A stretch of DNA of 64,000 nt from Verrucomicrobiia bacterium (GTDB lineage Bacteria; Verrucomicrobiota; Verrucomicrobiia; Palsa-1439): positions 69,068 through 133,067 of the forward strand of contig JBBISF010000001.1 in the NCBI GenBank assembly GCA_037441425.1, given 5' to 3'. Numbering within the stretch: position 1 is the first letter of the stretch; each line of letters begins with the position of its first letter. A model generated the notes under the pieces. It saw only the letters and a list, made by a program, of their open reading frames with translations, was not told where the DNA came from and did not search any database. Positions 2,399 to 37,881 of the stretch are shown here, piece by piece. A program made the position numbers and the translations under genes.

Positions 2399-2460
2399 GA
2401 TGGCCTCATTACTAGGCCACCGGTCACGACGGGTCAAGCGCAGCTTTGCCGGAAGGAAGA

Positions 2461-6882: not shown

Positions 6883-8310
6883 ATGAGCGCGGCTCGCGCC
6901 AGCACGAGTTTCGTCGTCGCCACAATCTGTTTGGTGGTGCTGTGTGGTTGCAGCCCTACTCCCAGGGACCGGACTCCCGATGGACGCGTGATCGTTCACT
7001 ACTGGGAGAAGTGGACCGGGTTTGAAGGCGACGCGATGGATGCCGTCGTTGCGGATTTCAATGCGTCGCAACATCACATTCTCGTTCAAAAACTCACGGT
7101 CAGCCAGATTGATCACAAGCTGATCCTCGCCACTGCCGGTGGTGATCCGCCCGATGTTGCGGGTTTGTGGTCGCACACGGTACCGGATTTCGCCGAGAAG
7201 AACGCGCTGATGCCGCTGGACAAGTTCGCCGCGCAAGCCGGCATCAAATCCACGGACTACATCCCGGTCATCTGGCAACTCTGTTGCCATCGTGGGTTCC
7301 TGTGGGCGTTGCCGAGCACGCCGGCTTCGGTGGCGTTGCATTGGAACAAAAAACTTTTTCGTGAAGCGGGGCTTGATCCGAACCGGCCACCGCGCAGGCT
7401 CGACGAACTCGACGCCATGAGCGACCGGCTGACCATTGTCGAGATTCAACGCGGCGGAAAGACGGGGCGGGTCCGGTATACCGATCTGACTCCTGCCGAA
7501 CGGGAGGCCAAGAATTTCAGCCTCATACAGGTTGGCCATCTGCCGCAAGTGCCGGGGTGGTGGATGCAGATGTGGGGCTATTGGTTTGGCGGCTCATTGT
7601 GGGATGGCAACCGCAGGATCACCACGGCCAGCCCGGAAAACGTGGCGGCGTTCACGTGGGTGCAGCAGTACGCGCAGAAGCTCGGCGTGGACAACCTGCG
7701 CAGCTTCGGCGCGTCGTTTGGCAATTTCTCGTCGCCACAAAGTCCGTTCCTCGCCGGCAAGGTGGCGATGGTATTGCAGGGCGTGTGGATGTACAACTTC
7801 ATCAGCAAGTACGCGCCGCAATTGGAGTGGGGCGTGGCCCCGTTCCCGGCCAAGGACCCGCAACGGTTTCCGATGGTGACGATTGCTGAATGCGACGTGC
7901 TGGTGATACCCAAAGGCGCGCGGCATCCCCGGGAGGCGTTTGAGTTCGCGCGCTATGTGAATTTGCAAAAGCCGATGGAGAAACTGTGTCTGGGCCAGCG
8001 CAAGTTCAGTCCGTTACTCAAGGTCAGCCCGGAATTCATCGCACGGCATCCGAACCCTTACATCCAGACGTTCATCGAACTGGCCAAGAGTCCGCACGCT
8101 CGGTACGTGCCGCAGCTTTCGATCTGGCAGGAGTACCGGGACGAAATGCAGGTGGCGATGGATCGCATCCTGGCGTTGGAAGCGCCGCCGCAGGAAGCGC
8201 TCGACAACGTACAGCAGCGAGTGCAATGGCGGTTCAACCGGGTCCAGTGCCGGTGGGACGCCGTGCAGGACGAACGCCTCAAGGAATGGAACAACTATGA
8301 CGCGCGGTGA
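6883..8310 (+). CDS. ABC transporter substrate-binding lipoprotein (family-1, sugar)
   Basis: Lipobox LVVLCGCSP. SBP_bac_1-like length and composition. First gene of an SBP-permease-permease-GH130 set. Confidence 0.8.
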   Translation: MSAARASTSFVVATICLVVLCGCSPTPRDRTPDGRVIVHYWEKWTGFEGDAMDAVVADFNASQHHILVQKLTVSQIDHKLILATAGGDPPDVAGLWSHTVPDFAEKNALMPLDKFAAQAGIKSTDYIPVIWQLCCHRGFLWALPSTPASVALHWNKKLFREAGLDPNRPPRRLDELDAMSDRLTIVEIQRGGKTGRVRYTDLTPAEREAKNFSLIQVGHLPQVPGWWMQMWGYWFGGSLWDGNRRITTASPENVAAFTWVQQYAQKLGVDNLRSFGASFGNFSSPQSPFLAGKVAMVLQGVWMYNFISKYAPQLEWGVAPFPAKDPQRFPMVTIAECDVLVIPKGARHPREAFEFARYVNLQKPMEKLCLGQRKFSPLLKVSPEFIARHPNPYIQTFIELAKSPHARYVPQLSIWQEYRDEMQVAMDRILALEAPPQEALDNVQQRVQWRFNRVQCRWDAVQDERLKEWNNYDAR

Positions 8311-9181
8311 ACGCCGACAACTCTGGCTGGGGCTGGCCTTCATCAGCCCGTGGATCATCGGGTTTCTGGCGTTCACGCTCTACCCGGTGCTCGCGTCCAT
8401 CTACTATTCGTTTTGCGACTACGACGTGCTCTCCAAACCGGTCTGGGTCGGCACGCTCAATTTCCACGACATGTTGACGGACAGCGCGTTCTGGCAATCG
8501 CTTTGGAATACGCTGTATTACGCCGCGTTCTCCCTGCCGCTCGGGCTGGTGATTTCGTTGGTGGTGGCCGTGTTGCTGAACCAACCGGTCCGCGGCCGCG
8601 CGGCATTCCGCGCGATCTTTTTCCTGCCATCGCTGATCCCGATCGTGGCCGGCTCGATGATTTGGCTATGGATCTTGAACGGCAATTTCGGATTGTTGAA
8701 CCACGCGCTGGAGTTGATCGGCATCAAGGGCCCGCAGTGGCTGGCCGATGAGAAGTGGACGAAACCGTCATTGATCCTGATGTCGCTGTGGGGTTGCGGT
8801 AACACCATCGTCATTTACCTCGCCGCGTTGCAGGACGTGCCACGGTCGTTGTACGAGGCCGCGGAGATTGACGGCGCGACGGCGTGGGCGCGGCTCTGGC
8901 ACGTGACCGTCCCGATGATCTCGCCGGTCATCTACTTCAACCTCATCATGAGCATCATCGGTTCGCTGCAAGTGTTCGCCAATGCCTATATCATGCTCGG
9001 CGGCGGCGGGCCGAACCGCTCAGCGCTGTTCTACGCGGTGTACCTGTACCAAAACGCGTTTGAGTACCGGCAAATGGGTTACGCCTGCGCGATGGCGTGG
9101 GTGTTGTTCCTCATCATCCTGTTTCTGACGTGGGTCGCCACGCGCACCACGCGCAAACTCATCTTCTATGGAGGGGAATAA
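8297..9181 (+). CDS. sugar ABC transporter permease (MalF/UgpA-like)
   Basis: It has 6 TM helices and the EAA loop AAEIDGATAWARLWHVTVP. Confidence 0.85.
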   Translation: MTRGERRQLWLGLAFISPWIIGFLAFTLYPVLASIYYSFCDYDVLSKPVWVGTLNFHDMLTDSAFWQSLWNTLYYAAFSLPLGLVISLVVAVLLNQPVRGRAAFRAIFFLPSLIPIVAGSMIWLWILNGNFGLLNHALELIGIKGPQWLADEKWTKPSLILMSLWGCGNTIVIYLAALQDVPRSLYEAAEIDGATAWARLWHVTVPMISPVIYFNLIMSIIGSLQVFANAYIMLGGGGPNRSALFYAVYLYQNAFEYRQMGYACAMAWVLFLIILFLTWVATRTTRKLIFYGGE

Positions 9182-9184: not shown

Positions 9185-10102
9185 ATGCGTGTCCTGTCCC
9201 GCATCCTGATCTACCTGCTGTTGCTGCTCGGTTCGGTCATGTTTCTCATCCCGCTGGTGTGGATGATTTCGACCGGTCTCAAACCGATCGAACAAACCAT
9301 GTCCATGCCGCCGACGTGGCTCCCTTACCGGTTGTACGTCAAAGCAGACGGCAAGTTGACCGAGATTCAGCAGGCCGACTTGGGCAAGTACCCGGCCAAC
9401 GAGATCGTGAAGAAATTCGCCCCGCGCTGGGGCAACTTCGCCGCGGCCATCCGCGCGATGAAGTTCTTCCCGCTCTACCTCAAGAACACGCTCGTGCTCT
9501 GCCTCCTCACGGTGATCGGCACGGTATTCTCCAGCGCGCTCGCGGCGTATGGTTTTGCGCGCATCGAATGGTTGGGCCGCAATAAGGTGTTTCTCGTGGC
9601 GCTGGCGACGATGATGGTGCCGTTCCCGGTGGTGATGGTGCCGTTGTACTGCATGTTCCGCGCGCTGGGCTGGATCGGTACACTCAAACCGTTGTGGGTC
9701 GGCTCGTTCTTTGCCGGGGCGTTCAACGTGTTCCTGCTCCGGCAATTCTTCATGTCGATTCCCAAAGACCTATCCGAAGCTGCCCGGATCGACGGCTGCA
9801 GCGAGTTTCGTATCTTCTGGCAGATCATCCTGCCGTTGTGCCGGCCCGCACTGATGGTCGTCGGCCTGTTCCAGTTCATGGCGACATGGAACGATTTTCT
9901 CGGCCCGCTGATTTACCTGACCGACCAGAAGGATTTCACGCTGGCGCTCGGCCTGCAGTTCTTCCAGAGCCAGCACGGCGGCACCGAGTGGCATTACCTG
10001 ATGGCCGCCAGCACGTTGGTCGCGTTGCCGATCATTGTCCTCTTCTTCTTCACGCAAAAAACATTCATCGAAGGCATTTCGATGACCGGTCTCAAGGGCT
10101 AA
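9185..10102 (+). CDS. sugar ABC transporter permease (MalG/UgpE-like)
   Basis: EAA loop EAARIDGCSEFRIFWQIILP. It starts 4 nt after the upstream permease. Confidence 0.85.
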   Translation: MRVLSRILIYLLLLLGSVMFLIPLVWMISTGLKPIEQTMSMPPTWLPYRLYVKADGKLTEIQQADLGKYPANEIVKKFAPRWGNFAAAIRAMKFFPLYLKNTLVLCLLTVIGTVFSSALAAYGFARIEWLGRNKVFLVALATMMVPFPVVMVPLYCMFRALGWIGTLKPLWVGSFFAGAFNVFLLRQFFMSIPKDLSEAARIDGCSEFRIFWQIILPLCRPALMVVGLFQFMATWNDFLGPLIYLTDQKDFTLALGLQFFQSQHGGTEWHYLMAASTLVALPIIVLFFFTQKTFIEGISMTGLKG

Positions 10103-10105: not shown

Positions 10106-11173
10106 TTGAATACATTCAAACTGAAGCGTTACACGGACAACCCCATCATCAGTCCCACCGCAGATTCATCGTGGGAAAATATCTGCACCTGCAATCCCGG
10201 GGCGTGGTGGGACGGTCGCCAAGTCCACTTACTCTACCGGGGCGGCCCGGACACTGACCAACACCCCATCCATTTCGGTCTGGCCGAGAGTACCGATGGT
10301 TTCCACTTCGCGCGCGTCTCGGGCCGGCCCGTCTTCAGTCCCGCGCCCGGCAGTTGGGACGGTGGCTGCATTGAAGACCCGCGCATTGTCCGGTTTGGCG
10401 ACACCTACTTTGTCACCTACGCTGCGCGGATGTTTCCGCCGGCCGCCTACTGGCGCAAGAAATTCCCCCTGAACGCCTTCAATCCGCCGTTGCCCCCGGA
10501 AGCGCCATTGGCCGCCCGCAAAAACCTCACCCGCTCCGGCTTGGCGTTGACGAAAGATTTTCGCGCGTGGCACCGGCTCGGCCCGCTTACCGCCGCCGAT
10601 CTCGACGATCGCGACGTAATCGTCTTCCCCGAACAGGTCGCCGGCCAGTTCGTCCTGCTCCATCGCCCCGGCAGTTGGGTGGGCCCCACCTACGGATGCG
10701 AACGCCCGTCCATCTGGATGTCGTTCAGCGACGACCTGTTGTGTTGGCGGAACGAGCACTTGCTCGCCCAACCGGTTTTCGATTGGGAATGCCGGAAGAT
10801 CGGCGGCAGCACTCCGCCCATCAAGACCACCAAAGGTTGGCTAACCCTCTACCACGGCGTCGACGACCAAATGATCTACCGCGTCGGGGCCATGCTCCTC
10901 GATCTGAAGAATCCTCTGCAAATCCTTGGTCGCACCCCCCAACCAATTCTGGAACCGGTTGCCGAATATGAGCGGGCCGGCCTGGTCCCTAATGTGGTCT
11001 TCCCCTGCGGGAATGTCGTCATCAACGGCACACTGTTCGTGTACTACGGCGGTGCCGACAAGGTTTGCTGTGTCGCCACATGCCCGTTGATGGACCTGGT
11101 CGAATACACCCTCGACCACCCGCCATTGCACACCCAGAGTACCAGCGCGCGCGGTCTCGGCATAGGACATTAA
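10106..11173 (+). CDS. GH130-family glycoside hydrolase / beta-mannoside phosphorylase
   Basis: NPGAWWDGRQVHLLYRGG...GLAESTDGFHF...WDGGCIEDPRIVRFGDTYFVTYAA is the GH130 five-bladed propeller signature. Confidence 0.8.
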   Translation: MNTFKLKRYTDNPIISPTADSSWENICTCNPGAWWDGRQVHLLYRGGPDTDQHPIHFGLAESTDGFHFARVSGRPVFSPAPGSWDGGCIEDPRIVRFGDTYFVTYAARMFPPAAYWRKKFPLNAFNPPLPPEAPLAARKNLTRSGLALTKDFRAWHRLGPLTAADLDDRDVIVFPEQVAGQFVLLHRPGSWVGPTYGCERPSIWMSFSDDLLCWRNEHLLAQPVFDWECRKIGGSTPPIKTTKGWLTLYHGVDDQMIYRVGAMLLDLKNPLQILGRTPQPILEPVAEYERAGLVPNVVFPCGNVVINGTLFVYYGGADKVCCVATCPLMDLVEYTLDHPPLHTQSTSARGLGIGH

Positions 11174-13817: not shown

Positions 13818-13866
13818 GAAAGAAAAACGAAAAGGGGGAAAGAAGCGGCTGCGGCTTCTTTCCCCC
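13818..13866 (-). terminator. rho-independent terminator downstream of flp
   Basis: A perfect 13-bp stem GGGGGAAAGAAGC/GCTTCTTTCCCCC (13834-13846 and 13854-13866) with a 7-nt loop. On the minus strand it is followed by UUUUCGUUUUUCUUU. Confidence 0.7.
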
Positions 13867-13888
13867 TCTCGTTATCTGCGTCAGCAAA

Positions 13889-14062
13889 CTATTGCAGGTT
13901 CGTGTTGACGCTTTGGAGTTTGCTGTTGACGTTGGTGCCGATACCTTTCAGCACCAAAATCGCCACCACTGAGATCAAGGCGAGGATGAGTGCATACTCA
14001 ACCAAGCTCTGACCTGAGCGGCCGTTAAATTTCCGCATCACTTTGGCGAGCTTCTTCTTCAT
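13889..14062 (-). CDS. flp: Flp/Fap-family type IVb pilin
   Basis: MKKKLAKVMRKFNGRSGQSLVEYALILALISVVAILV contains the Flp G-x4-EY motif. A strong SD, GGGAGGTGA, lies 5 nt upstream of the ATG at 14062. The 14095 start in the ORF track is a TTG. Confidence 0.8.
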   Translation of the reverse strand: MKKKLAKVMRKFNGRSGQSLVEYALILALISVVAILVLKGIGTNVNSKLQSVNTNLQ

Positions 14063-14102: not shown

Positions 14103-14131
14103 TGCTCTCCATCAACAGTTCCCGTGCCACG
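14103..14131 (-). promoter_or_regulatory. candidate sigma-54 (-24/-12) promoter upstream of flp
   Basis: The minus strand reads TGGCACG-GGAA-CTGTT about 60 nt upstream of the flp ATG. The -24 element is perfect, but the -12 is degenerate (GT instead of GC). Confidence 0.2.
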
Positions 14132-14285: not shown

Positions 14286-15830
14286 CTATCTGAGCAGTTC
14301 GTACAATCTGTTGCCCGATCCTTCCACCGGCCGCGTTATCAGAGGGGTGAAGTACCGGGCATAGATGTTCACGTCCATACCGGGCGGCACCACGAGCAAA
14401 ACCTGCCGATGATTCTCTGTGTCCAAACCGCTGACGAAACTCAAATGTTCGCCTTGCACGCACCACAAGGGTTTGCCGGGCGGGCTGGGGATGGTCGGGT
14501 CCGGTGCAAGTTGGTATTGCCGAAACTCGGGCAGGTGTAACTGAAAGATCCGCAACCCAAAACTGTAATGGGCGGCCAGCGCGTGACAGATCACCGTGTC
14601 CGCTGGCTGGTAACGTGAACGAATCGCGGTGACAACTTGCGCCACTTGCCGGTCATGTTGGCGAATCTCCCGCGCGGTGCGGCCATATCCGAGCAACACG
14701 TCATCCCACCGTTGGGGCCAAGCGAGGAACACGAAAATGTTGCCAGCCGCCACCAACCCCACCACCGTCAGGTAACACCAGTTCCGCCGCAACTGGGCCA
14801 CGACGGCCGCGCTCAATGACAACAAGGCCGGCAAGTAACCCAGCACATGTCCCGGCTGCGAAGTGAATTGAATCACGGTGCCGAATAGCACCATTGGCAC
14901 AATCCACAGCGCCAACACCCGGCCCGCCCGGCGATGGGCCGTATCCCACACCTGTTTTTGTTGAGGCGACATCCCCCACACCCGGTAAACCACCGCACCC
15001 ACCAGCGGGACGACGCCCAAGAGCAGGCCATTCCAACAAAAGGCGATGGACAGATAGCAGTTCGTGAACAGCGCCGGCCAACCACCGCCGGTCAACGTGC
15101 CGGAAGCGTTATTCTGGTTGTAGCGCCGGACGATGTCCCAATAAACACGCCAACCTTCGGATTGATGTAACATCGGGAAAAACCAGCTTGCCCCCAGACC
15201 GAGCGCCACCAGGATCGCCACCAGGAGTTTCAGCAGCCGCCGGGTCGAAAAATGCCAAAACACATACGCCAATAACGGCAACAGCACGGGCACGGTCTGT
15301 TGCCGGATACCGCCGACCACCGCAACGAGGACTCCCACGCCGACGGCGTCCCCCCAAGTCCCACCGCGTTGCAGCGCCCGCCAACACCACCAAACCGTCA
15401 GGCAAATCCCGCACGCGTCCACCACATACGTCAGTGCCACTTCGCTGTGAAACCAGAATTGCGGACTGGTCAGCGCGAAAAGCCCGGCGGCCAGACCCGC
15501 GCGCCGCCCGAACATTCCGCTCCCCAATCCATAGAGCACGACCGGCACGGCACTACCAAACAGGACATCCAGCCACACCAGACTTGCGTGCGGATCACCC
15601 ACCGCGAAATTCACCAATCGCCCCAGCATCACATACAGGAAGTAGCCGGGCGCGTGCGGCTGACTCAAGGCGACATTGTACGCCTGGATCGCCAACGCAA
15701 ACTGGGCGCCATCCCAGTGGTACGCGTACTGACTGCGGAACGGCACCCGCAGCGCGAAGGCGACCACCAGCAACAGCAACGTGATGCGCCCATCGGTTGT
15801 GGATCGTTTACCGGGCTTGGGGGATGTACA
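14286..15830 (-). CDS. polytopic membrane protein, GT-C-fold glycosyltransferase-like (ArnT/PMT-like)
   Basis: About 515 aa with more than 10 predicted TM helices. YHWDGAQFALAIQAY in the first extracytoplasmic loop carries an acidic residue. Start chosen at 15830, just after the upstream gene stop; 15890 is possible. Confidence 0.55.
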   Translation of the reverse strand, partial: CTSPKPGKRSTTDGRITLLLLVVAFALRVPFRSQYAYHWDGAQFALAIQAYNVALSQPHAPGYFLYVMLGRLVNFAVGDPHASLVWLDVLFGSAVPVVLYGLGSGMFGRRAGLAAGLFALTSPQFWFHSEVALTYVVDACGICLTVWWCWRALQRGGTWGDAVGVGVLVAVVGGIRQQTVPVLLPLLAYVFWHFSTRRLLKLLVAILVALGLGASWFFPMLHQSEGWRVYWDIVRRYNQNNASGTLTGGGWPALFTNCYLSIAFCWNGLLLGVVPLVGAVVYRVWGMSPQQKQVWDTAHRRAGRVLALWIVPMVLFGTVIQFTSQPGHVLGYLPALLSLSAAVVAQLRRNWCYLTVVGLVAAGNIFVFLAWPQRWDDVLLGYGRTAREIRQHDRQVAQVVTAIRSRYQPADTVICHALAAHYSFGLRIFQLHLPEFRQYQLAPDPTIPSPPGKPLWCVQGEHLSFVSGLDTENHRQVLLVVPPGMDVNIYARYFTPLITRPVEGSGNRLYELLR

Positions 15831-17310
15831 CATAATAAGTCCGGTCGCAATGCGCGAGCCGGTAAGTAGCAGCCAACCGGTAGCGCGCACGCATCAACGT
15901 CAACCAACGCTCGGGAAAAAATCGCCACCGATCAGATTGATCTAAGGGGCGCAACGCGACAATCGCTCCGAACGCGCCCGTCGTGATCTGCCGGCATACC
16001 GCCGCATCATCGAATCGGCCGTGTTCTTGCATGACCGCCAACGCGCTGGCATCAGTCAGATAAACCGGGCGGCCGCAACGCAATGTCAGATAGGGATCTT
16101 CGATCAGCAATGGATCGCTCCAAGCCCTCATGGCGGCCAGCAAGTGCTCCCACGCTTGGACTTGCGCCGCGCGCATCGCGCGGTGGTGGACGATTTCCCG
16201 TTCATAAATCGGCCAGCGCATCACGCGTTGCCCCAGCGTCAGCACGACCGCGCCACAGGTCAGCCCCAGCCAGGTGAACCGCAACCATTGACCGCCGCGC
16301 ACCACGGCCCAGCGGTCGAGCAACAAGGCCGCCAGGACGCAGCCCACCGCCGCCGGTTCCAAGTAATGACTGGGAGCCGTTCCCGGATTGGTTGTCCGCA
16401 CAAACGCGAATACCAAGGCGACTCCAAAATAGCGTTTCAGAAACGTCGTCGTCTTGTCCCCGGTCAGGCACGTCAGGCCCACAATCCCGCCCAACAGGCT
16501 GCCCGGATGCAACGCCAGCACCGCCAGCAACATCGTGACCGGCCACCGCCATTCGGTAAACAGACTGAGCCAACCGGTGACGTTGGGCAGGAACGCGCCA
16601 TGGCTCAGCCACTGCGTCAGCACCGTTGTGCCACCCACCACGGCGGCCCAGCCGGCGGCCAACGCGACCGCTTCGCCCCATCGCTTCTGCCGGCATTCCT
16701 CCCATAACACGACCAGCAACGCAGCCGTCGCAGTTTGTTTGCAAAGGAACGCCAGCACCAACAGACCCATCGCCCCGGCCCGCCCCCACCCACTGTCACA
16801 CCGGCAGTACAACCACACCCCACTCAGCGACAGGAACAACGCCGCCGCGTCCGGTCGGAAGGCAATCGCGTACTCGGGCGTCAGATTCCCGGCCAGCCAC
16901 AGCAGCATCCCGAACGCCGCCACCAACCGGCCCCCGCCCGCTTGACGAACGACCAGCCAGATCATGACTGCAATCCCGCCCCACGCCACCCACGTAAATA
17001 GCCGCCCGATCACCAACGTCCCGACTGGCCCGGTCTTGAGACCCCGCGCGCACCAGCCCGGCAGATAGTACATCAGCGGCGGATACGGACTAACCGCATA
17101 AGGTGGGACGGAGAAGTTCCCATACGGGCAACGCCCTTCCCGCACTTGCGTCAATCCATACAGGGTCACACCTTCCGACAGGGCGGTTTCTCCATCCAGG
17201 TCCAGAGAGGAGATCGAGCGCGCTTCCCAGAGCGCGGTCGACACGACCAGACAGACCACCAAACACCATGTCACTTTGCGTAGCTCCCCGGCTGGACGTT
17301 GGATATTCAC
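15808..17310 (-). CDS. polytopic membrane protein, GT-C-like glycosyltransferase candidate
   Basis: The GTG start at 17310 overlaps the upstream TGA (GTGA). The first 150 aa of the 652-aa ORF are low-complexity readthrough. The first loop has LDLDGETALSEG, and about 12 TM helices follow. Confidence 0.5.
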   Translation of the reverse strand: MNIQRPAGELRKVTWCLVVCLVVSTALWEARSISSLDLDGETALSEGVTLYGLTQVREGRCPYGNFSVPPYAVSPYPPLMYYLPGWCARGLKTGPVGTLVIGRLFTWVAWGGIAVMIWLVVRQAGGGRLVAAFGMLLWLAGNLTPEYAIAFRPDAAALFLSLSGVWLYCRCDSGWGRAGAMGLLVLAFLCKQTATAALLVVLWEECRQKRWGEAVALAAGWAAVVGGTTVLTQWLSHGAFLPNVTGWLSLFTEWRWPVTMLLAVLALHPGSLLGGIVGLTCLTGDKTTTFLKRYFGVALVFAFVRTTNPGTAPSHYLEPAAVGCVLAALLLDRWAVVRGGQWLRFTWLGLTCGAVVLTLGQRVMRWPIYEREIVHHRAMRAAQVQAWEHLLAAMRAWSDPLLIEDPYLTLRCGRPVYLTDASALAVMQEHGRFDDAAVCRQITTGAFGAIVALRPLDQSDRWRFFPERWLTLMRARYRLAATYRLAHCDRTYYVYIPQAR

Positions 17311-18557
17311 GCGCCTTGCCTCGACGGCTGTTTGGCGTTGATCATTTGACGGAGGAAGAACCGCGCGACCAATAGCATCCCGGCCAAGGGCAGCGAGTTT
17401 ACCAGGAGCTTCAGGTACAGATCGTGTTTGAGAAACGGGGTTTCCCAGCGATTGATGTTGTAGAGATTGTTCAGCAGGACAAACGCCAGTCCCATGATGA
17501 GCCACTCCCGGTAATCCGTCTTCCCGGCAAGCTGCGCGCACGCCACGGCCATCGGAAAAATCAGGAACACCAGATAATGGCCCCACGTCATCATGCCGCC
17601 CACCAACATCACGACGCTCAGCCAACAGAATTCCATTTCCAGGCTGCCGCCCCACCGGGCGCATGCGCCATATCCCGCCACCAACAACAACATGCCAACG
17701 CCGATTCCGCAAGTACTCCATAATTCCGCGACTGCATCCGTCGGGTGAAAATGGTCGGGCAAACATCCCAGCTTCATCATAAAGGACGGCAGACTGAAGT
17801 TATAAATGCTTTCGACCGCGTAACGTTGGAGGTACGGAACGGCATAGACTTCAAAGTCCCACCACCGGCCGGGACCTGTAGCCAACACGGTCAACGTGAT
17901 GAGTCCGGCTACCAGCATCAGGCGTTTGCCGCGGACGGCCCAAGAACCGTGGCTCCGCCATAAAAACCAGGGCAACAGTACGAATGGGTAAAGTTTGATC
18001 ACGCCGGCAATCGTCACCAAGATGCAGGCGACAGTGGATCGTCCCCGCTGCAGTTGTACGTAGCCGGCCAGCACCAGCGCCGCCAACAGAAGCTGGGTTT
18101 GCGCAAAACCAAAATGCCACAACAATACCGGGGACGTGAGTACGGCGCAGATGATCCAGTCGCGCCCGTGTGCGAGCCGGTCATCCAACAACCGCATGGT
18201 CAGCCAGAGAATCACCGCCAACGCGAGCGCTTGGACCAAGGTCCACGCCAGCATCGCCCCTCCCGGCGGCAACAGCGCAAACGGAACAAACAACCAGAGC
18301 AATCCCGGTGGGTTGGTCGCGTACGGAATGCGTGCGGACACCTCAAAGCCGTATTTGGCGTAATAAGTCGCGAGCGGCGTCGAATACACCGGCAAACCCT
18401 CCAGCAGCACCCGGCTGGAGACGTAGTAATGCGAAAAATCAATCGTGTGCACCCGCAGCGGCAACACCGCCACAATCCGCCACACGCACCAGCCGGCCAG
18501 CGCCACGGCCACGAGGCGAATCAAGCGTGAATGCAAAATGCACAGCAGGCGGTTCAT
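17307..18557 (-). CDS. DUF2029/GT87-like membrane glycosyltransferase (polyprenol-P-mannose mannosyltransferase-like)
   Basis: A 416-aa protein with about 11 TM helices. It resembles DUF2029/GT87, including KLYPFVLLPWFLW. Confidence 0.55.
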   Translation of the reverse strand: MNRLLCILHSRLIRLVAVALAGWCVWRIVAVLPLRVHTIDFSHYYVSSRVLLEGLPVYSTPLATYYAKYGFEVSARIPYATNPPGLLWLFVPFALLPPGGAMLAWTLVQALALAVILWLTMRLLDDRLAHGRDWIICAVLTSPVLLWHFGFAQTQLLLAALVLAGYVQLQRGRSTVACILVTIAGVIKLYPFVLLPWFLWRSHGSWAVRGKRLMLVAGLITLTVLATGPGRWWDFEVYAVPYLQRYAVESIYNFSLPSFMMKLGCLPDHFHPTDAVAELWSTCGIGVGMLLLVAGYGACARWGGSLEMEFCWLSVVMLVGGMMTWGHYLVFLIFPMAVACAQLAGKTDYREWLIMGLAFVLLNNLYNINRWETPFLKHDLYLKLLVNSLPLAGMLLVARFFLRQMINAKQPSRQGA

Positions 18558-18582: not shown

Positions 18583-18635
18583 CCTAGCAAGTTTTCTTCC
18601 AGACCGCGAGCCGGCCGCACCGCGCGGCTTTGGAG

Positions 18636-18663
18636 TTGCGCCTGCGTTTCGGGCCGTTATACT
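18636..18663 (+). promoter_or_regulatory. candidate sigma-70-type promoter for the plus-strand triple-paralog operon
   Basis: TTGCGC, then a 16-nt spacer, then TATACT. AGGAGG follows at 18671-18676 and the GTG start at 18683. Confidence 0.3.
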
Positions 18664-18682
18664 GCGCGGCCAGGAGGATGGC

Positions 18683-20140
18683 GTGGCTGACGATCTGCCC
18701 CGGCAGGCTTGGCGCTGGTGGCTCCCATCAGTAAGTCAATGGTTGTGGCTGCTGCTCGTGTGGCTGCTGCTCACACCGGCATGGCGAACCGTCATGGTGT
18801 CGGCCGATGGCGATCCGTGCATGCATTGGGCGGTCGGCAAATGGATGCTGCAGCACCGGGAGATTATGCAGGCCGATGTCTTTTCCTACACCCGGTCCGG
18901 CGCGCCCATTATTTCCACGGAGTGGCTGGCGGAGGTGATCTTCGCCTTGGCCGGGCGGTGGGCGGGTTTGGATGGTCTCGCCATCGTGGCGGCGTTTGTG
19001 ATCGCGACGACGTTCGCGCTGTTGCACCGGCAGTTGGTCCGCGAGGGGGGCGACTTGTTGGTGGCCACCGCCGTCACGTTGCTGGCGGCATGGGCCGCCA
19101 CGAACCATTGGCTGGCACGCCCGCACGCGTTCAGCTTCCTGATGATTCTGCTGTGGCACGCTGCGTTGCGCGTGCACGAACGGGACGGCAACGCCCGACG
19201 GCTTGTCATGTGGTTGGCGGTTCTGGCAGTCTTGTGGGTGAATTTGCACGGCGCGTTTATCGCCGGTTTTTTCGTGCTGGGCGCGTATTGGCTCGGCGCG
19301 TTCGTGGAACGGGACCGTCGGAAACTCGGCCAGTTGACGCTCGCCGGTGTGGTTGCCGGCGCGGCCACGTTGCTCAACCCCAGCGGCTGGCGGCTGCACC
19401 TCCACAACCTCGAATTCCTCCAATCCAAGTTCTTCACGGGCTATCTCGCCGAATATCAGTCCACCAACTTTCAGGCAGCGAGTGGCGTGGGGTTTCTCAT
19501 TTGGTTGTCGCTGCTGTTTCTGGTGCTGGTGTTGAACCGGCCACGGTGGACGGCCGGCGAGATTTTCCTGTTGCTGTCGTGGGGGTACTTTGCGCTTTAC
19601 GCCGGCCGCAACATCGGGCTGCTCGCCATTCTCACCGCGCCGCTCGTGACGCAGTCCATCGCGCTAACCGGCGTGGGAGCGCGCCTGTCGGCCAGACTGC
19701 GGCGACTCAATGAAGCAACCGGCAGTTGGCTCCTGATGGTGGCGCTTGGCGTGGCCGCCGTGATTTTCCTGCCGCCGAGCGCCAAGATGCCGCCCAAGAC
19801 TTGGCCGGTCCCGGCCGTGGAATATATCCGCCACCACCCCGCCGAGTTTACCGGCAACATGCTTAATCAATACATGTGGGGCGGCTATCTGATGCTGTAT
19901 TTGCCGGAACATCGTGTGTTTGTGGATGGCCGGGCGGATTTCTACGGCGAAGCGTTGGTGAAGGATTTTCAACTCGTCACCTCCCTGCGACCCGGTTGGC
20001 AGACCCCGCTCGAAAAATATCATATCACCTGGACGTTGATGCCGACCGACCATCCGTTGAATCAAGCGCTGGCGCTGCTGCCGGGGTGGCGGCAAGTGTA
20101 CACCGATCCGGTCGCCACCATCTGGCGCAAGACCCCATGA
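18683..20140 (+). CDS. GT-C-like polytopic membrane protein, paralog A of a tandem triplet
   Basis: GTG start with a perfect AGGAGG 6 nt upstream. The upstream part of the 656-aa ORF is antisense overlap. Motifs VMVSADGDPCMHWAVGKWML, WVNLHGAFIAGFF and WGGYLMLYLPEHRVFVDGRADFYG. Confidence 0.6.
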   Translation: MADDLPRQAWRWWLPSVSQWLWLLLVWLLLTPAWRTVMVSADGDPCMHWAVGKWMLQHREIMQADVFSYTRSGAPIISTEWLAEVIFALAGRWAGLDGLAIVAAFVIATTFALLHRQLVREGGDLLVATAVTLLAAWAATNHWLARPHAFSFLMILLWHAALRVHERDGNARRLVMWLAVLAVLWVNLHGAFIAGFFVLGAYWLGAFVERDRRKLGQLTLAGVVAGAATLLNPSGWRLHLHNLEFLQSKFFTGYLAEYQSTNFQAASGVGFLIWLSLLFLVLVLNRPRWTAGEIFLLLSWGYFALYAGRNIGLLAILTAPLVTQSIALTGVGARLSARLRRLNEATGSWLLMVALGVAAVIFLPPSAKMPPKTWPVPAVEYIRHHPAEFTGNMLNQYMWGGYLMLYLPEHRVFVDGRADFYGEALVKDFQLVTSLRPGWQTPLEKYHITWTLMPTDHPLNQALALLPGWRQVYTDPVATIWRKTP

Positions 20141-21537
20141 ATCAGCGCCTGCCTGTCATCGTTTTCCTGGGGATGGTCGCCGTGCTGGCGACCCATTGCA
20201 TTTACGATCCGGATGTCTGGTACCATCTCGCTGTCGGCGATCACATTCTCACCACACACCAAGTTCAGCACACCAATCTGTTCTCCTTCACCTACCCCCA
20301 GCATCCATGGATTGACGTGTATTGGCTGTATGACTGTCTGCTGGCCGCGCTGTGGCGGCTGGGCGGGAGCTTGTTCGTAATTGCGCTGAAAGTCTTGTTG
20401 AATCTGGTGTTGGCGGCGCTCGTGGTGTTCGGCCTGCGAGACCGCCGTCAACAATTGACCGGTGGGGAAACCACGGTGCTCATGCTGGCGTGGTTGGTCA
20501 TGTTGCCCCGGCTGTCGGATCGTCCGGAGTTACTGAGCTATGTCCTGCTGGCCGCGGTCCTCGTCCTCATCCGGCAAGGCCGCCTGTGGTGGTGCATCCC
20601 GATTCAAATCGTCTGGGCCAACGTCCACAGTCTGTACTATCTGGGCCCGGTGCTCTTGTTACTATACGCCGTGGCCACGCGGCAGGCGCGGGTGTTACCG
20701 GTCGTGCTGGCTACCGGTCTAGCCTGTCTCGTTTCGCCGTACGGCTGGAACAACTTGCGGGTGGCCGGTGAACTCATGCACACCTTGCGCGTATTGGGCA
20801 ACCAAGTGCAGGAATTCCCCAGCCCGTTTCACCCGCGCGCCTGGGCCAGCGGCGCCAACTCGCTGCTGTTCCTGATATGGGTCGTCGGGGGCGGCCTCCT
20901 CCTGCTCCGGTCGTGGTCCCGACAAACGTTGTTTGATGGATTCATCATCCTGCTCAGCGTCGGACTGGCGATGCGCACCCAACGCGCCGTCCCGCTGGCG
21001 GTGCTCTGTTCCTTGCCGGCGGTCCTGTTGGCCGTCCGCCAGTTGCCGGCAACCAATGGCGTGTTGCGCTGGGTGGCGGTTGGGTTCATGGGGCTGATCG
21101 CCGGGGATTTTCTGGCCGGCACCCACTACCTGATCCGCTCGCCCCGAGGTGATCTCACGTTCGGGATCCGGGTGTATCCCCGGAATTTTCCGAACTCGGT
21201 CGTTGATCTCCTGACCGCGCTGCCGCCCTCGGCGCGGGTCGCCAACGTTCATTTTCATACCGGCGGATTTCTGATTTGTGCGTTTGCGGGCGCGCGACCG
21301 GTTTTCATTGATCCCCGCTTGGAGGCGTATCCCCGCGAGTTCATCGCCGCGTACGATGCCAGCCTTCAAAGCGCCCAACGTTTTTCACAGTTCACCGACC
21401 GCTTCCGGGTCACTCACGCACTGATCATCAAAGACAACGCGGAAGCTTGCCGGCTGGCCCGCTGGCTGGCGGGCGACAAGGGCTGGCGCCGCGTTTCCGG
21501 TAATGAGCAAGCCGAACTTTACGAACGCACCCCATGA
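20136..21537 (+). CDS. GT-C-like polytopic membrane protein, paralog B (more diverged)
   Basis: The ATG overlaps the upstream TGA (ACCCCATGAA). Motifs DPDVWYHLAVGDHIL, VWANVHSLYYLGP and C-terminal PVFIDPRLEAYPREF. Confidence 0.6.
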
Positions 21538-23030
21538 ACAATCGCTCGTCTTTTCCCCGCGTTCTCGTGCCCTCGGTTGGCGTCGGCCTCTGGGTGATTG
21601 TGTTTCTGATCCTGACCTTGTCGAATTGGCGCTTCGTGTTGGTCAGCGCCGATGGCGATCCGGCGCTGCACTGGCGTATGGGCGACTGGATGCTCACGCA
21701 TCACGCCATCCTGCACACCGATCAGTTCTCACACACCCAGCCGGATGCGCCGTTCATCACCAAGGAATGGCTGAGCGAGATTCTCTTTGCCGGGGCGGGC
21801 GACCGTCTGGGGTGGAACGGATTTGTGCTGGTGGCGGCCATCCTGATCGCGACCACGCTTTGGCTGTTGCACCGGCAACTGCTCACTGAAAACTGTGAGC
21901 CGTTGCTGGCCGCCGGGTTGGTGGTGCTGGCGACCTTTGCCATGTCGCAACACTGGCTGGCGCGCCCACATTTGTTCACGCATTTGCTCGCCTTGCTGTT
22001 TGCCCTCAAGCTGCGCGCGTTCGCCCGCAATCGACTGCCGGTTACCCGGTTGTTCGCGTGGCTGGTTCCGCTCATGGTGATGTGGGTGAATCTGCACGGC
22101 GCGTTTTTCATCGGGTTCGTGTTAATTGGCTGTTACTTGGTGGGGATGGTTTTGGATCGCGCGCAGTGGGCCCGGTCTAAAACATTCGCTTTCGTGTTGC
22201 TTGGTTGTTTGGTCGCTTCTTGGCTGAACCCGAACGGTTGGAATCTGCACGCCCATATCATCCGCTTCATCCACAGCCCGACATTGACGGGTTACACCAA
22301 CGAATTCCGCTCACCGGATTTCCATTCGCCGGCGATGCACGGGTTCCTGCTGCTGTTGCTGGTGGTCGCTGTCCTGTTGACCTGGATCCGGCCGCGGCTC
22401 GCCAAGGCCGACATTATCCTGCTGGCGGTGTGGGGTTATTTTGCGCTCCACTCGGTGCGCAACATCCCGATCTTCGCCATCGTGGCAGTGCCAATCTTGG
22501 GTGAATATCTCAGTCATTGGCTGCGGGAACGCTGGACCGGTGGACGATTGCCGGTCACGCAGCGCGTCGCCGAGCGCTTTCACCGGTGGCAACCGGGGCG
22601 CGCCGGGGCGGGCGTGATCGTTCTGACGGTTGGTCTCGTGGTGTACGTGATGCAAACCGGGCGGCTGCGCACCGATTTACTGCCGGATCGCTTTCCGGTG
22701 CAGGCGGTGGAATTTCTCCGGCAACACCCGGAGCAGATTCATGGCGAGATGTTCAACGCCTATGGCTGGGGGGGGTACTTAATGTTGGCGCTGCCGGAGC
22801 ACAAGGTTTTCGTGGACAGCCGCAATGATTTCTACGGTGCCCGGTTCATGAAGGCATTCGATCGGGCGGACAAAGTGCAGCCCGGCTGGGAAGAGGTCTT
22901 TCAGAAATACAACGTCGGCTGGACGTTGCTGCCGGTCGCGCATCCGTTAAACAGTCTGCTCGCCTTGCAGCCCAAGGTTTGGAAGGACATTTATCGCGAT
23001 CACGTCGCGGTGATTTACGCGCGCCGGTAG
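21534..23030 (+). CDS. GT-C-like polytopic membrane protein, paralog C
   Basis: The ATG overlaps the upstream TGA through the same ACCCCATGAA junction. Motifs VLVSADGDPALHWRMGDWML, WVNLHGAFFIGFV and WGGYLMLALPEHKVFVDSRNDFYG. Confidence 0.65.
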   Translation: MNNRSSFPRVLVPSVGVGLWVIVFLILTLSNWRFVLVSADGDPALHWRMGDWMLTHHAILHTDQFSHTQPDAPFITKEWLSEILFAGAGDRLGWNGFVLVAAILIATTLWLLHRQLLTENCEPLLAAGLVVLATFAMSQHWLARPHLFTHLLALLFALKLRAFARNRLPVTRLFAWLVPLMVMWVNLHGAFFIGFVLIGCYLVGMVLDRAQWARSKTFAFVLLGCLVASWLNPNGWNLHAHIIRFIHSPTLTGYTNEFRSPDFHSPAMHGFLLLLLVVAVLLTWIRPRLAKADIILLAVWGYFALHSVRNIPIFAIVAVPILGEYLSHWLRERWTGGRLPVTQRVAERFHRWQPGRAGAGVIVLTVGLVVYVMQTGRLRTDLLPDRFPVQAVEFLRQHPEQIHGEMFNAYGWGGYLMLALPEHKVFVDSRNDFYGARFMKAFDRADKVQPGWEEVFQKYNVGWTLLPVAHPLNSLLALQPKVWKDIYRDHVAVIYARR

Positions 23031-24416
23031 CTAGCGGATGGCGTCGGGATCAATACTGAACTTTTTGAGTTTGGCGTAGAGCGTCGTGCGGCTGATTTGC
23101 AGTTGTTCCGCCGTGCGTTTGATGTTGCCGGCGTGTTGCCGGAGGGTGCTGAGTAGGATTTGCTTCTCTGGTTCTTCGAGTTGATCCGCCAACCGGGGCG
23201 AAACCTGAGCGGAGGAGACTTGGGAGAGTCGCTTGGGTAAATCGGTTTGCTCCACCAGGGGCGATTTGGCGAGCACGACCGCCTGCAACACCACGTTTTC
23301 CAGCTCGCGGACGTTGCCCGGCCACCGATACGCGTTCATCAGCGCAATGGCCGGGTCGGTGAATCCGCGCACGTCTTTGTGGTGTTGCCGGCTGAACCGG
23401 CGGAGAAATTCCATCGCCAACAGAGGAATGTCTTCCACCCGTTCGCGCAGCGGCGGGACGCGGATTTCCACGACGTTCAGCCGGTGGAACAGGTCTTCCC
23501 GGAAACGTCCGTCCGCCACGCACTCTTCCAGTGCTTGGTTCGTTGCGGCGACAATCCGCACATCCACTGAAATTGGTTTCGCTCCTCCCACCCGCTCAAA
23601 GGTCCGGGTCTGCAAGACGCGCAGCAGTTTGGCCTGCACCCCCAGATCGATGTTGGAAACCTCGTCAAGGAACAGCGTGCCGCCGTTGGCCCGTTCGAAC
23701 CGGCCAATATGCCGGTCGGTCGCGCCGGTGAACGCGCCTTTTTCGTGGCCGAAGAGTTCGCTTTCCAACAATTCGCGCGCGAGCGCCGAGCAATCCATCG
23801 TCACCAGCGGTTTGCCATGCCGGGAACTGGCTTCGTGAATGGCCCGCGCCACCAACTCTTTGCCCGTGCCGGTTTCACCGAAGATCAACACGTTCGCGTA
23901 GCTATCGGCGATGGTCTGGATCAACTCGAAGATGTCCTGCATCTGCGCGTTGCGGCTGATGATGCCGTAGAATCCGGGGGCGGGTTCCGCCAGCAGACCC
24001 CGGTGTTGCGGATCGGCTAAATCCGCCCGCACGCTCCGTTGTCGTTGCTGAGCGGCTCGGATTACCGACTCGCGCACCGCCTCAATCGACGGCGCTTGTA
24101 GCCCGCGCTCTTGGTAATCAAAGACACCCAGTTTCGTAGCTTGCACGGCTTGAGTAACCGATGGTCTGGCCGTGCAGATGATGAACATCACATTGGGATG
24201 GATCTGCCGAACCTGTTCGAGGAACGCATCGCCGTTTGCACCGGGGAGGTTAATGTCGGCCACAAGAAGATCGATACCGCGTGCCTGCAACAACAACAGC
24301 GCATCATCAAACGTATGGGCCGAAAGCACTTCAAAGTTGTCTTTGATGAGCGCCTCAGACACACCCAACGTCCAAGACGCATCGGTGTCCAAGAGTAGCA
24401 CTTTGAACTTTGGCAT
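23031..24416 (-). CDS. sigma-54-dependent Fis-family response regulator (NtrC-like: REC + AAA+ + HTH)
   Basis: Receiver KVLLLDTD...LLVADINLPG. Walker A GETGTGKELVARAIH. GAFTGA motif HEKGAFTGA. C-terminal Fis HTH RTTLYAKLKKF. Start ATG at 24416 (MPKFKV). Confidence 0.85.
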   Translation of the reverse strand: MPKFKVLLLDTDASWTLGVSEALIKDNFEVLSAHTFDDALLLLQARGIDLLVADINLPGANGDAFLEQVRQIHPNVMFIICTARPSVTQAVQATKLGVFDYQERGLQAPSIEAVRESVIRAAQQRQRSVRADLADPQHRGLLAEPAPGFYGIISRNAQMQDIFELIQTIADSYANVLIFGETGTGKELVARAIHEASSRHGKPLVTMDCSALARELLESELFGHEKGAFTGATDRHIGRFERANGGTLFLDEVSNIDLGVQAKLLRVLQTRTFERVGGAKPISVDVRIVAATNQALEECVADGRFREDLFHRLNVVEIRVPPLRERVEDIPLLAMEFLRRFSRQHHKDVRGFTDPAIALMNAYRWPGNVRELENVVLQAVVLAKSPLVEQTDLPKRLSQVSSAQVSPRLADQLEEPEKQILLSTLRQHAGNIKRTAEQLQISRTTLYAKLKKFSIDPDAIR

Positions 24417-24482
24417 GTTCAGCCGTCGCTTATGAGTGTCAACCGTCGCCGGGAACTTTCTCGGACCGACTTGGCAGATTCT

Positions 24483-24497
24483 CTGGACAGTGTCCAG
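24483..24497. promoter_or_regulatory. perfect 7-1-7 palindrome CTGGACA-G-TGTCCAG upstream of the sigma-54 regulator gene
   Basis: It lies about 70-80 nt upstream of the minus-strand ATG at 24416. Confidence 0.35.
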
Positions 24498-24641
24498 CAA
24501 CCGATGAGCCAGACCCAGATGAACAGAGCCAATCCAGCCGCATGGCAGCGCATGTTCATAGCCATCCGAGCCTTGTTTGTCAAGGCTGCCGGAGCGGTTA
24601 AGACAGCTTACCGGGACTAGGATGACACAGCGGTGAACATG

Positions 24642-32322: not shown

Positions 32323-34542
32323 TCACGCTGTATACGGCAGCGGGAATTGGGCGGTGAGGGCGCGTACTTTGCCGCGCACCTTGTCGGCAACGGCCAGGTT
32401 GCCGGGATTCTCCAGCGCTTCGGTCATCAACCCGGCAATCTGCTCCATCTCCGGCTCTTTCATGCCGCGGGTGGTGACGGCGGGCGTGCCGACACGGATG
32501 CCGGAGGCGACCATCGGTTTCTCGGGATCGAACGGAATCATATTCTTGTTCACCGTGATCCCGGCTTGGTCGAGCGCCTCCTGCGCAACCTTGCCGGTCA
32601 ATTTCTTCGGCCGCAGATCCACCAACATCAAATGATTGTCCGTGCCGCCACTGACGATCCGGAAACCGCGTTTGCTCAGGGCGGCCGCCAATACGGCGGC
32701 GTTCTTGACGATCTGGCGTTGGTAGTCCTTGAACTCCGGCCGCAACGCTTCCTGGAAACAAACGGCCTTGGCGGCAATGATGTGCATGAGCGGGCCGCCT
32801 TGGATGCCGGGGAAGATTTGGGAGTTCACCGCTTTCGCGTGCGCTTCCTTGCAGAGAATCAATCCCGCGCGCGGGCCGCGCAACGTCTTGTGCGTCGTGC
32901 TGGTCACGATGTCGGCGTGTGGAACCGGGTTCGCATGCACGCCGCCCGCGACCAGCCCGGCAATGTGCGCCATGTCCACCACCAACGCCGCGCCCACGGC
33001 CTTCGCGATGGCCGCAAATCCGGCAAAATCGAGCGTGCGCGGGTAGGCACTGGCTCCGACGACGATGATGCGCGGTTTCTCGGACTGAGCGAGCCGCGCC
33101 ACTTCGTCCATGTCGATGCGTTCCGTCTGCTGGCTCACGCCGTACGGCACGATCCGAAACAATCGGCCGGAGAAATTGACCGACGCGCCGTGCGTGAGGT
33201 GTCCGCCGAAGTTCAGGCTCATCGCCAAAATCGTGTCGCCCGGCTTGGCCAACGCGAAGTACGCGGCCATGTTGGCCTGGCTGCCGGAATGGGGCTGGAC
33301 GTTGGCATGTTCCGCGCCGAACAGTTGTTTGGCACGATCAATCGCCAATTGCTCCGCGACGTCCACAACCTCACAGCCACCGTAGTAGCGCTTACCGGGA
33401 TAACCTTCGGCGTATTTATTCGTAAGCACGCTGCCGGCCGCTTCGAGGACGGACGGGTTGACGAAATTCTCGCTGGCGATCAGCTCGATGTTTTCCTGTT
33501 GGCGTTGCTTCTCGCGTTGGACAACCGTGAAGATTTCCGGGTCGGTTTGCGCCAGCGCCGAACTCTTTTTCAGAGTCAGACCGGGTTTAAGCGGCGGCTG
33601 ATCCATCTTCTGCACCCGCCGCGCGTGCCGGCCGCCCGCAAACGGTGTCCTGAGCCAGACATCGAGAATGCGGACGGCCTGCTCGTTGTTCAGCTCGATG
33701 CCGGACAGGACAAGGACGTTGGCGTCGTTGTGTTCGCGACTGAGGCGCGCCCATTGCTCACTGCCGACCATCGCCGCGCGCACGCCGACGACACGGTTGG
33801 CGGCGATGCTCATGCCAATGCCACTCTTGCAGATCAATACGCCCCGCTCGGAATTGCCGGCGGCGACTTCCTCGGCAACCGCAAACGCGTAGTCCGGGTA
33901 ATCGCACGGCTCGGTCGAATTCGTGCCGAGATCGGTGAACTGATAACCTTGTTTGGTCAGCCACTCTTTCAACGCCGCCTTCATCTCCACGCCGCCGTGA
34001 TCGGCCCCCAACACGATGCGCGGCGTGACGGTCTGGGTTTCAGTGGTTTCGCTCAAGGTTTTCTTCATCACACGTTCCGTTTGATCAATGAACTCCAACA
34101 CCGAGGGCAAGGCGTCGCGGATTTGGTCGCGCGTTTGCCGGTACACTCCCACCGGCGAGCCGATCGGGTCGGCAATGTCCCGACTCTCGTCCGGCGGCAC
34201 TTCCTGAAACTCCCGCAGCACGAAAATCTTCTCCGCCGCCTCCGGGTACAACGCCTGCAGCAAATCCTGCTGCTGCCGCGTCATCGTGAACACGAAATCC
34301 GCCTGCTCGATCATCCCGGCCCGCAACGCCAAGCTGCGGTGATGCGTCAGATTACCGCCCAACTCCGCCATCACGTCCACGGCCAAATCGGTGGCCGGTT
34401 GCCCATCCACCGCGCCGATGCCGGCTGAGACGCACCGGACATCGCCGCGTTTCCGCGCGAGCTTGTCCATCAACGCTTCCGCCATTGGACTGCGACAGAC
34501 GTTGCCCGTGCACACAAACAAAATGGTTTTCACTTTTGCCAT
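32323..34542 (-). CDS. tri-domain fusion of low-molecular-weight phosphotyrosine/arginine phosphatase, ribose-5-phosphate isomerase B and serine hydroxymethyltransferase
   Basis: aa 1-157: [14 protein letters not shown] is the CX5R P-loop of LMW-PTP. aa about 175-305: [21 protein letters not shown]...[17 protein letters not shown] is RpiB/LacAB. aa about 313-739: ELIASENF...THKTLRGPR is SHMT with the PLP lysine. One uninterrupted 739-aa frame. In-frame Met codons at 34071 and 33606 mark the domain starts. Confidence 0.8.
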
Positions 34543-34554
34543 CGCGTCCGCCGC

Positions 34555-35673: not shown

Positions 35674-35685
35674 GTGCTTGCTGTT

Positions 35686-36963: not shown

Positions 36964-37073
36964 AACTCGCGTGTGGCGACTCTAGGGGAACCCGCGAACG
37001 AGAGCAATGTGGAAAAGCGTCCGGCAGGAATTGTCACGACCCTCACCGAGCGCTGTCCGCCCCCCCCGGGTCT

Positions 37074-37850: not shown

Positions 37851-37881
37851 CAGCCGCGTCCGGAAGCCCCCACCCTTGCGC

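Follow-up and report, generated by a model that had tools for sequence, protein, structure and literature searches.

What do three tandem genes for large membrane proteins, here called A, B, and C, do in a Verrucomicrobiia bacterium, and how did they come to stand side by side? The genes lie within a stretch of 64,000 nucleotides (GenBank assembly GCA_037441425.1, contig JBBISF010000001.1, positions 69,068 to 133,067 of the forward strand; hereafter the window), in which an earlier note, made from the DNA sequence alone, had described them as the product of a triplication with conserved ATGA junctions. We find that A, B, and C are almost certainly paralogous integral membrane proteins with a GT-C fold, members of a very large unnamed family that recurs in loci for Tad/Flp pili, and that a functional tie of this family to the Tad/Flp pilus is likely. 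With moderate confidence, we propose that the three would act as translationally coupled periplasmic glycosyltransferases on the Flp pilin.

Pairwise BLASTP alignments with composition adjustment were full-length and collinear for all three pairs, with 42% identity between A and C (E 1e-120), 24% between A and B (E 2e-15), and 26% between B and C (E 2e-19). This bears out both the true paralogy and the status of B as the diverged copy that the earlier note had read from shared peptide motifs, and all the motifs it quoted were found in the translations of the three open reading frames (ORFs). Because the alignments are full-length and adjusted for composition, a likeness arising from transmembrane composition alone is excluded, as it is by the invariant polar residues common to the three proteins and by their identical predicted folds. 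Across A, B, C, and 56 homologs, 27 alignment columns were invariant. The 485-amino-acid product of A is identical to the protein that NCBI lists for the source contig, and the products of B and C are each identical to a database protein. A begins with GTG at 18683, with AGGAGG at 18673–18678, five bases before; the limits first drawn for A and C stood, while the start of B moved from 20136 to 20137.

No family in Pfam or NCBIfam was matched by A, B, C, or any of ten distant homologs. With a profile of A, B, and C, 31,052 clusters defined at 50% identity were retrieved at E ≤ 1e-3, 6,408 of them at E ≤ 1e-30. About 13 transmembrane helices and an inside N-terminus are predicted, and the AlphaFold model of C (pLDDT 92.2, pTM 0.91) likewise displays ~13 transmembrane helices followed by a C-terminal alpha/beta domain. 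The top 20 Foldseek matches of this model were chains of STT3, AglB, PglB, and DPY19, with TM-scores of 0.47–0.64, while ArnT, AftA, ALG12, and PimE were also strong structural matches; the model of B (pLDDT 85.1) yielded the same list. As in the GT-C_A class, the modeled protein is thus a polytopic membrane protein that superposes on solved GT-C enzymes, and its small C-terminal domain, predicted to be periplasmic, resembles that of AglB. A profile search against PDB sequences also returned the kinase domains of AKT1 and AKT2 (E ~1e-3, 21 bits, profile positions 346–445), which we judged spurious because this region of the profile corresponds to the membrane-to-periplasm linker.

We next defined signature residues from 140 diverse representatives of the family, numbered as in C: D40, D42, H46, G50, D63, S66, E78-W79, R144-P145-H146, W184-x-N186-x-H188, P233, G235, E257, R309, P388, G413-x-Y415, D428, D432, Y434, W483, and D489. 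D40 and D42, found in 96% and 89% of the representatives, form a DxD motif (DGD in A and C, DPD in B) that immediately follows transmembrane helix 1, between helices 15–38 and 42–56 of the model. Conserved acidic residues in the first periplasmic loop, just after the first transmembrane helix, are again a feature of GT-C_A enzymes, and the DxD would be a motif of catalytic type. By conservation, R144, R309, H188, and N186 are candidate phosphate ligands, and E257 falls in a low-confidence loop of the model, as in the mobile or flexible EL5 loop of oligosaccharyltransferases (OSTs), with which it was compared by position only. A and C retain every signature residue. B is altered at 7 of 26 family-conserved positions (D63N, E78Y, H146E, D432E, G435P, W452F, and D489N), and all three proteins retain D40, D42, H46, R144-P145, W184/N186/H188, E257, R309, and D428. 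That A, B, and C are instead non-catalytic GT-C-like scaffolds, binding lipid or pilin during Tad assembly much as PIG-U/GAB1 serves the glycosylphosphatidylinositol transamidase, seems very improbable. Some members of the family, such as P0209 (917 amino acids) and P0272 (641 amino acids), bear C-terminal TPR repeats, an arrangement also seen in TMTC-type and other protein-directed GT-C enzymes.

Genomic context provided the link to pili. In the window, the array faces a divergent arm that comprises a GT87 gene, two PMT_2-type genes, and a Flp/Fap prepilin gene (flp; Table 1), and the GTG start of the 500-amino-acid PMT_2/ArnT-like gene overlaps the GT87 stop (GTGA). To place this arrangement, we scanned species-representative genomes and obtained 79 homologous loci, denoted by L-numbers, to which L082, L085, and L086 were added from further look-ups; family copies per locus were counted by tblastn. 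As in the window, flp lies inside the cluster in L003, L082, L086, and L087: it closes the GT-C arm in L082 and L086, while in L087 an A-C array stands opposite PMT_2-flp-rcpC-secretin-tadZ-tadA-tadB. The window Flp is 81% identical to that of L082. The slot of the window's GT87 gene is filled in L082 (4136–8490, − strand) and L002 (1662–3800, + strand) by 711–740-amino-acid membrane proteins with a spermine/spermidine-synthase-like domain (PF01564). In L085, three tandem GT87 paralogs (1238–5232, − strand) lie opposite a four-copy array, with a GtrA-like gene ~5 kb downstream, so that tandem expansion also affects other GT-C families of the locus.

Beyond the Verrucomicrobia, a homolog of TadA, TadZ, secretin, or RcpC was found within 10 kb of the family gene in 50 of 71 loci, with TadA itself in 40; the remaining 21 had no Tad gene within this distance. 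Tad-linked loci came from Acidobacteriota, Chloroflexota, Gemmatimonadota, Desulfobacterota (Geobacter), and Planctomycetota (an anammox bacterium). RcpC (10), PilZ (7), and the prepilin peptidase family Peptidase_A24 (6) were the top Pfam families among immediate neighbors, and PMT_2-like genes also stand beside the family gene in Geobacter and anammox loci. In Acidobacteriota, flp follows the family gene on the same strand, 56–183 bp downstream, in 25 of 48 loci, against 0 in a reversed-sequence control. In these loci, the family gene adjoins, or sits within, a pilin or pilus locus, as is the case for pilin-linked GT-C enzymes.

Since membership in Tad/Flp pilus loci characterizes the family overall, pilin glycosylation is the function that we consider most likely. 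In the proposed scheme, A-B-C would be transcribed as a single operon forming one arm of a conserved Verrucomicrobial locus, and their products, working at the periplasmic side of the membrane, would draw sugars from polyprenyl-phosphate-linked donors. The acceptor would be the Ser/Thr-rich tail of Flp or a glycan growing there, with the PMT_2 and GT87 enzymes joining in, and the paralogs may provide different linkages or sites or may act as a complex. Whether Flp itself is the acceptor we consider close to an even question, tilting slightly toward the negative.

One alternative, which we regard as rather unlikely, is that the six GT-C enzymes of the window act on another envelope glycoconjugate and are merely co-regulated with the pilus. 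Candidate acceptors include lipid A or lipopolysaccharide (through ArnT-type modification), an adhesive exopolysaccharide, another Tad component, or many periplasmic proteins. Both lipoglycans and proteins serve as acceptors for GT87 and PMT_2 enzymes; ArnT, AftA, ALG12, and PimE are among the strong structural matches; the window flp has a promoter and terminator of its own and need not be co-transcribed with the enzymes; and Tad genes are absent from the vicinity of the family gene in the 21 loci noted above. However, the 25 loci in which flp follows the family gene at short distance and in the same orientation fit the expectation for a pilin-modifying enzyme. The nearest structural neighbors (OSTs and DPY19) also use peptides, the C-terminal domain is similar to the domain with which AglB binds its acceptor, and the TPR repeats of P0209 and P0272 likewise speak for a protein acceptor.

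Several observations weigh against pilin glycosylation by A, B, and C as such. Neither Tad assembly genes in the window nor a polyprenyl-phosphate sugar synthase beside the cluster could be detected, the other window genes being involved in housekeeping and glycan utilization. The flp-adjacency count is concentrated in one phylum and thus partly reflects shared ancestry. No sequence-level link to characterized GT-C families was found by Pfam, NCBIfam, PDB profile search, or hhalign: for A, B, and C, no Pfam hit was obtained at E ≤ 0.1, including to the OST family PF02516 (GT66), and no OST was matched in the PDB-sequence profile search at E ≤ 10. The tails of Flp from five orthologs lack an N-X-S/T sequon and the family lacks a WWDYG motif, so A, B, and C cannot work exactly like OSTs. 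Finally, the structure of the Caulobacter Tad pilus, the only one checked, displays no glycan density (PMC10710030).

Comparison with characterized systems helps to situate the proposed pilin glycosyltransferases. The GT-C pilin arabinosyltransferase TfpW of Pseudomonas aeruginosa group IV, encoded beside pilA, glycosylates type IV pilin; it is polytopic, with a loop 1 and a C-terminal domain that are both periplasmic, uses a polyprenyl-phosphate sugar, and self-associates (bioRxiv 10.1101/2020.04.19.049825). Sharing with A, B, and C both a polytopic GT-C fold and linkage to a pilin gene, TfpW is their nearest analog by gene arrangement. PilO/TfpO and PglL belong to the Wzy_C/O-antigen-ligase family rather than to the GT-C fold. 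They resemble A, B, and C in pilin-gene linkage: their genes lie beside pilin genes, and they glycosylate pilins on Ser, including a C-terminal Ser (PMC13234629).

The OSTs STT3, AglB, and PglB (GT66) share the fold. Unlike in OSTs, the position where WWDYG would be expected (judged by chain order, not by superposition) is occupied by (Y)GWGGY, which has no Asp and in which G413 and Y415 are conserved in 91% and 92% of representatives. The C-terminal domain is also much smaller in the family than in OSTs, and the lack of a sequon sets the Flp tail apart from OST acceptors, a difference that is relevant only if Flp is the acceptor.

PMT (GT39) and actinobacterial GT87 systems are periplasmic and depend on polyprenyl-phosphate-mannose for stepwise addition to Ser/Thr, with Pmt1-Pmt2 forming a paralog pair. 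PMT_2 and GT87 genes are also present in the locus studied here; A, B, and C themselves, in contrast to these neighbors, match neither PF13231 nor PF09594, and their acceptor would be a pilin. Aligned to the family profile with hhalign, the two PMT_2-like neighbors gave no signal (probability 0.2 for the PMT_2 neighbor). In Mycobacterium tuberculosis, embC-embA-embB are tandem GT-C paralogs in one operon with diverged acceptor specificity, two of which form a heterodimer (PDB 7bvf). The embCAB set resembles A-B-C in being one operon of three tandem GT-C paralogs; the Emb proteins, however, are GT53 enzymes of ~1,100 amino acids that act on arabinogalactan and lipoarabinomannan and have no link to a pilus.

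A more speculative version of the proposal, to which we give little weight, would see the family as an AglB-like, Tad-dedicated bacterial offshoot of the oligosaccharyltransferases performing sequon-independent glycosylation of Flp, perhaps acquired along with the archaeal Epd-type pilus ancestral to Tad. In Verrucomicrobia, this branch would have grown, with PMT_2 and GT87 enzymes, into a periplasmic assembly line of six to eight enzymes that builds an oligosaccharide on a 40-residue pilin under sigma54 control.

How the three proteins are produced bears on whether they work together. Both internal junctions contain the ATGA overlap described in the earlier note (ATG 20137–20139 with TGA 20138–20140, and ATG 21534–21536 with TGA 21535–21537), embedded in an identical 10-mer. 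No Shine-Dalgarno sequence precedes B or C, whereas in several relatives the final codons of the preceding gene contain GGAGG, and terminator-like sites within the array show no excess. As in other tandem arrays, the genes are thus on the same strand, collinearly homologous, joined by stop/start overlaps, and free of an internal terminator. Because B and C lack ribosome-binding sites of their own, they may be translated by termination-reinitiation at the ATGA overlaps, which would couple the expression of all three genes; the translational coupling suggested in the earlier note fits these sequence features.

From this coupling, the earlier note had suggested a hetero-oligomeric or sequentially acting set. 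In a version compatible with pilin glycosylation, A, B, and C would make up an obligate hetero-oligomer resembling Pmt1-Pmt2 or EmbA-EmbB, with a specialized or regulatory B and a stoichiometry set by the ATGA overlaps. Beyond the overlaps and missing Shine-Dalgarno sequences that tie the translation of B and C to the upstream gene, this would account for an A-B-C order kept in L082 and L006 and for a B that is constrained even with its seven altered positions, and both the self-association of TfpW and the heterodimer formed by the embCAB tandem paralogs (PDB 7bvf) offer precedents. A fixed complex, however, fits poorly with a copy number of 2–5 among relatives and with pseudogenized copies (A of L006 and the middle gene of L086), and one copy suffices in most phyla. 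We therefore consider such an obligate complex unlikely, if somewhat less so than a non-pilin acceptor.

The distribution of the family across loci further clarified how the array arose. Homologs of C number in the hundreds, the best non-self matches being 55–59% identical, with Verrucomicrobiota metagenome-assembled genomes as the named sources. A single family copy was counted in 66 of 81 loci, and tandem arrays were confined to Verrucomicrobial ones, with 2 to 5 copies among related Verrucomicrobia: A-C in L003, A-C′-C″-C in L004, L005, and L007, five copies in L002, four in L085, and, in L086, an array whose middle gene is split. A-B-C order is found in L006 (with A split) and, with 4-nt overlaps and the order of the window, in L082, while L010 has A then B. 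Split or frameshifted members include A in L006 (7301–8655) and the middle gene in L086 (6918–8448; 212 + 308 amino acids), and A of L002 (3801–5375) is called as 311 amino acids with its N-terminal part readable upstream; such splits suggest either ongoing pseudogenization or assembly errors.

In a neighbor-joining tree, printed without support values, A genes and C genes cluster by position, with the extra middle copies inside the C clade, while the B genes (from the window, L006, and L010) form a long branch outside A+C. On this topology, A and C are sister paralogs that separated before several Verrucomicrobial genomes diverged. B is ~23% identical to Verrucomicrobial A and C and likewise to representatives from other phyla, to which A and C are ~31% identical, and it scored 119 bits with an outgroup profile, compared to 68 and 74 with profiles of A and C. 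Considered as a C-head/A-tail chimera arising by unequal crossing-over and scored by quarters with hidden Markov models, B gave values that were little different, 26.5 (A) versus 21.9 (C) in its first quarter and 27.9 versus 25.6 in its last; for synapomorphy counts, informative columns were too few. Between the window and L082, identity is 67% for A, 62% for B, and 53% for C, a range in which synonymous sites are saturated, and all three genes are constrained. The position-wise grouping of orthologs, the placement of B outside A+C, and the varied copy number all argue against the single triplication envisaged in the earlier note, and the array is instead old and dynamic, shaped by gene birth and death.

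The ATGAA common to both window junctions is explained by the overlap and by a Met-Asn start that is conserved among orthologs of B and C. The remaining five bases of the common 10-mer have a chance probability of ~1e-3, and beyond the 10-mer the two regions do not resemble each other, with matches at 71 of 181 ungapped positions. The junction of the two-gene array in L003, AAGACACCATGAAC (given also as ACACCATGAAC), is near-identical to the window B/C junction, and L005 and L007 carry the window B/C junction itself, as GACCCCATGAAC (given also as ACCCCATGAAC), before C. In L004, two junctions (8300–8450 and 9860–10010) agree at 150 of 181 positions, against just 65–71% identity in the genes on either side, which looks like gene conversion across the junction, a recent duplication, or unequal crossing-over between adjacent paralogs. 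The nearest relative with an A-B-C array, L082, has only ATGAA in common between its two junctions. The idea that the duplication unit took in the junction thus holds for the family, in which such units are real, and is plausible for the A/B junction of the window, where the L082 comparison speaks against it. Gene conversion within the window itself was not supported: A and C aligned by blastn at 65% identity over 332 nt, with no conversion tract.

Candidate regulatory elements of the locus are listed in Table 1. A −10-like box upstream of A may belong to a sigma70-type promoter that drives A-B-C, and TTATACT occurs in L087 and L082 at the same spacing from the start. Two GG-N10-GC sites in the A/GT87 intergenic region, TGGAAGAAAACTTGC at 18587–18601 (− strand) and TGGAGTTGCGCCTGC at 18631–18645 (+ strand), were not conserved in orthologous regions. 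Upstream of flp, a sigma54-type −24/−12 element recurs at 64–96 nt in L082, L003, L086, and L087, the last with a perfect TGGCAC-N5-TTGC. Matches to the sigma54 consensus across the whole window were not above chance (90 versus 93 expected), and the case for this site therefore rests on its conservation across genomes. An NtrC-type sigma54 activator gene abuts C and also abuts the array in related loci that reach that far (given as seven: L002, L003, L005, L006, L082, and L085–L087), while in L004 and L007 it lies several kb farther downstream. This activator probably controls flp through the sigma54-type promoter.

Tad/Flp pili are drivers of adhesion and biofilm formation in very many bacteria. 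In the literature searched, we found no dedicated Flp-modifying enzyme, nor any paper tying a GT-C family to Flp/Tad loci, with most subscription journals outside the coverage of the search. An unannotated GT-C family in Tad loci of at least six phyla, including Verrucomicrobiota, would be a candidate for such an enzyme. If confirmed, this would give a function to many "hypothetical" membrane proteins of soil phyla (Acidobacteriota, Verrucomicrobiota, Chloroflexota, and Gemmatimonadota), and would offer a simple system of one pilin and one enzyme for studying the choice of peptide acceptors by GT-C enzymes. While the tandem array itself reflects ordinary birth and death within a gene family, the noteworthy part is an OST-like GT-C family in Tad/Flp loci, expanded here into a multi-enzyme cluster around flp.

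Table 1 Features of the A-B-C array and its surroundings, in window coordinates.
Feature	Coordinates	Strand	Remarks
Gene A	18683..20140	+	485 amino acids; predicted GT-C-fold membrane protein, first in the array; 42% identity to C
Gene B	20137..21537	+	466 amino acids; diverged paralog
Gene C	21534..23030	+	498 amino acids; last gene of the array
A/B junction ACCCCATGAA	20131..20140	+	Read from sequence; stop of A overlaps start of B
B/C junction ACCCCATGAA	21528..21537	+	Read from sequence; stop of B overlaps start of C
−10-like box TATACT	18658..18663	+	5′ of A; putative sigma70-type promoter for A-B-C
GT87 (PF09594) GT-C glycosyltransferase	17307..18557	−	Pfam E 1.5e-24; opens the divergent arm
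Divergent PMT_2/ArnT-like GT-C protein	15808..17310	−	500 amino acids; exact NCBI protein; remote matches to PF13231 proteins
PMT_2 (PF13231) GT-C glycosyltransferase	14286..15833	−	Pfam E 1.2e-9; ATG at 15833 assumed; ORF open to 15890
flp, Flp/Fap prepilin	13889..14062	−	57 amino acids; Pfam Flp_Fap E 7.8e-9, 35.6 bits, above cut-off; mature part QSLVEYALILALISVVAILVLKGIGTNVNSKLQSVNTNLQ
Sigma54-type −24/−12 element TGGCACGGGAACTGT	14115..14129	−	67 nt before the flp ATG
Intrinsic terminator	13830..13870	−	Right after flp; 17-bp stem with 8 G-C pairs, then a T run
NtrC-type sigma54 activator	23031..24500	−	Receiver, Sigma54_activat, and HTH_8 domains (Pfam); convergent with C and abutting its stop; start probably near 24419

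Elsewhere in the window, genes for a GH99/GH71-like protein (3136–4503), a GH130 mannoside phosphorylase (10106–11173), and a GH38 alpha-mannosidase (53404–55887), plus a sugar ABC transporter, mark the surroundings as a region for mannoside utilization. A 739-amino-acid ORF at 32323–34542 (− strand) combines a low-molecular-weight phosphotyrosine phosphatase (residues 7–146), RpiB (176–313), and serine hydroxymethyltransferase (330–705), and is either a genuine triple fusion or an ORF that was drawn too long and takes in neighboring genes. GC skew is strongly negative (−0.25 and −0.20) over 34001–38000 and flips to +0.19 at 38–40 kb. Within this region, an 807-amino-acid ORF at 34681–37104 (+ strand) has no Pfam match and a lower GC content at third codon positions (0.65), and the real gene there may thus be on the other strand.

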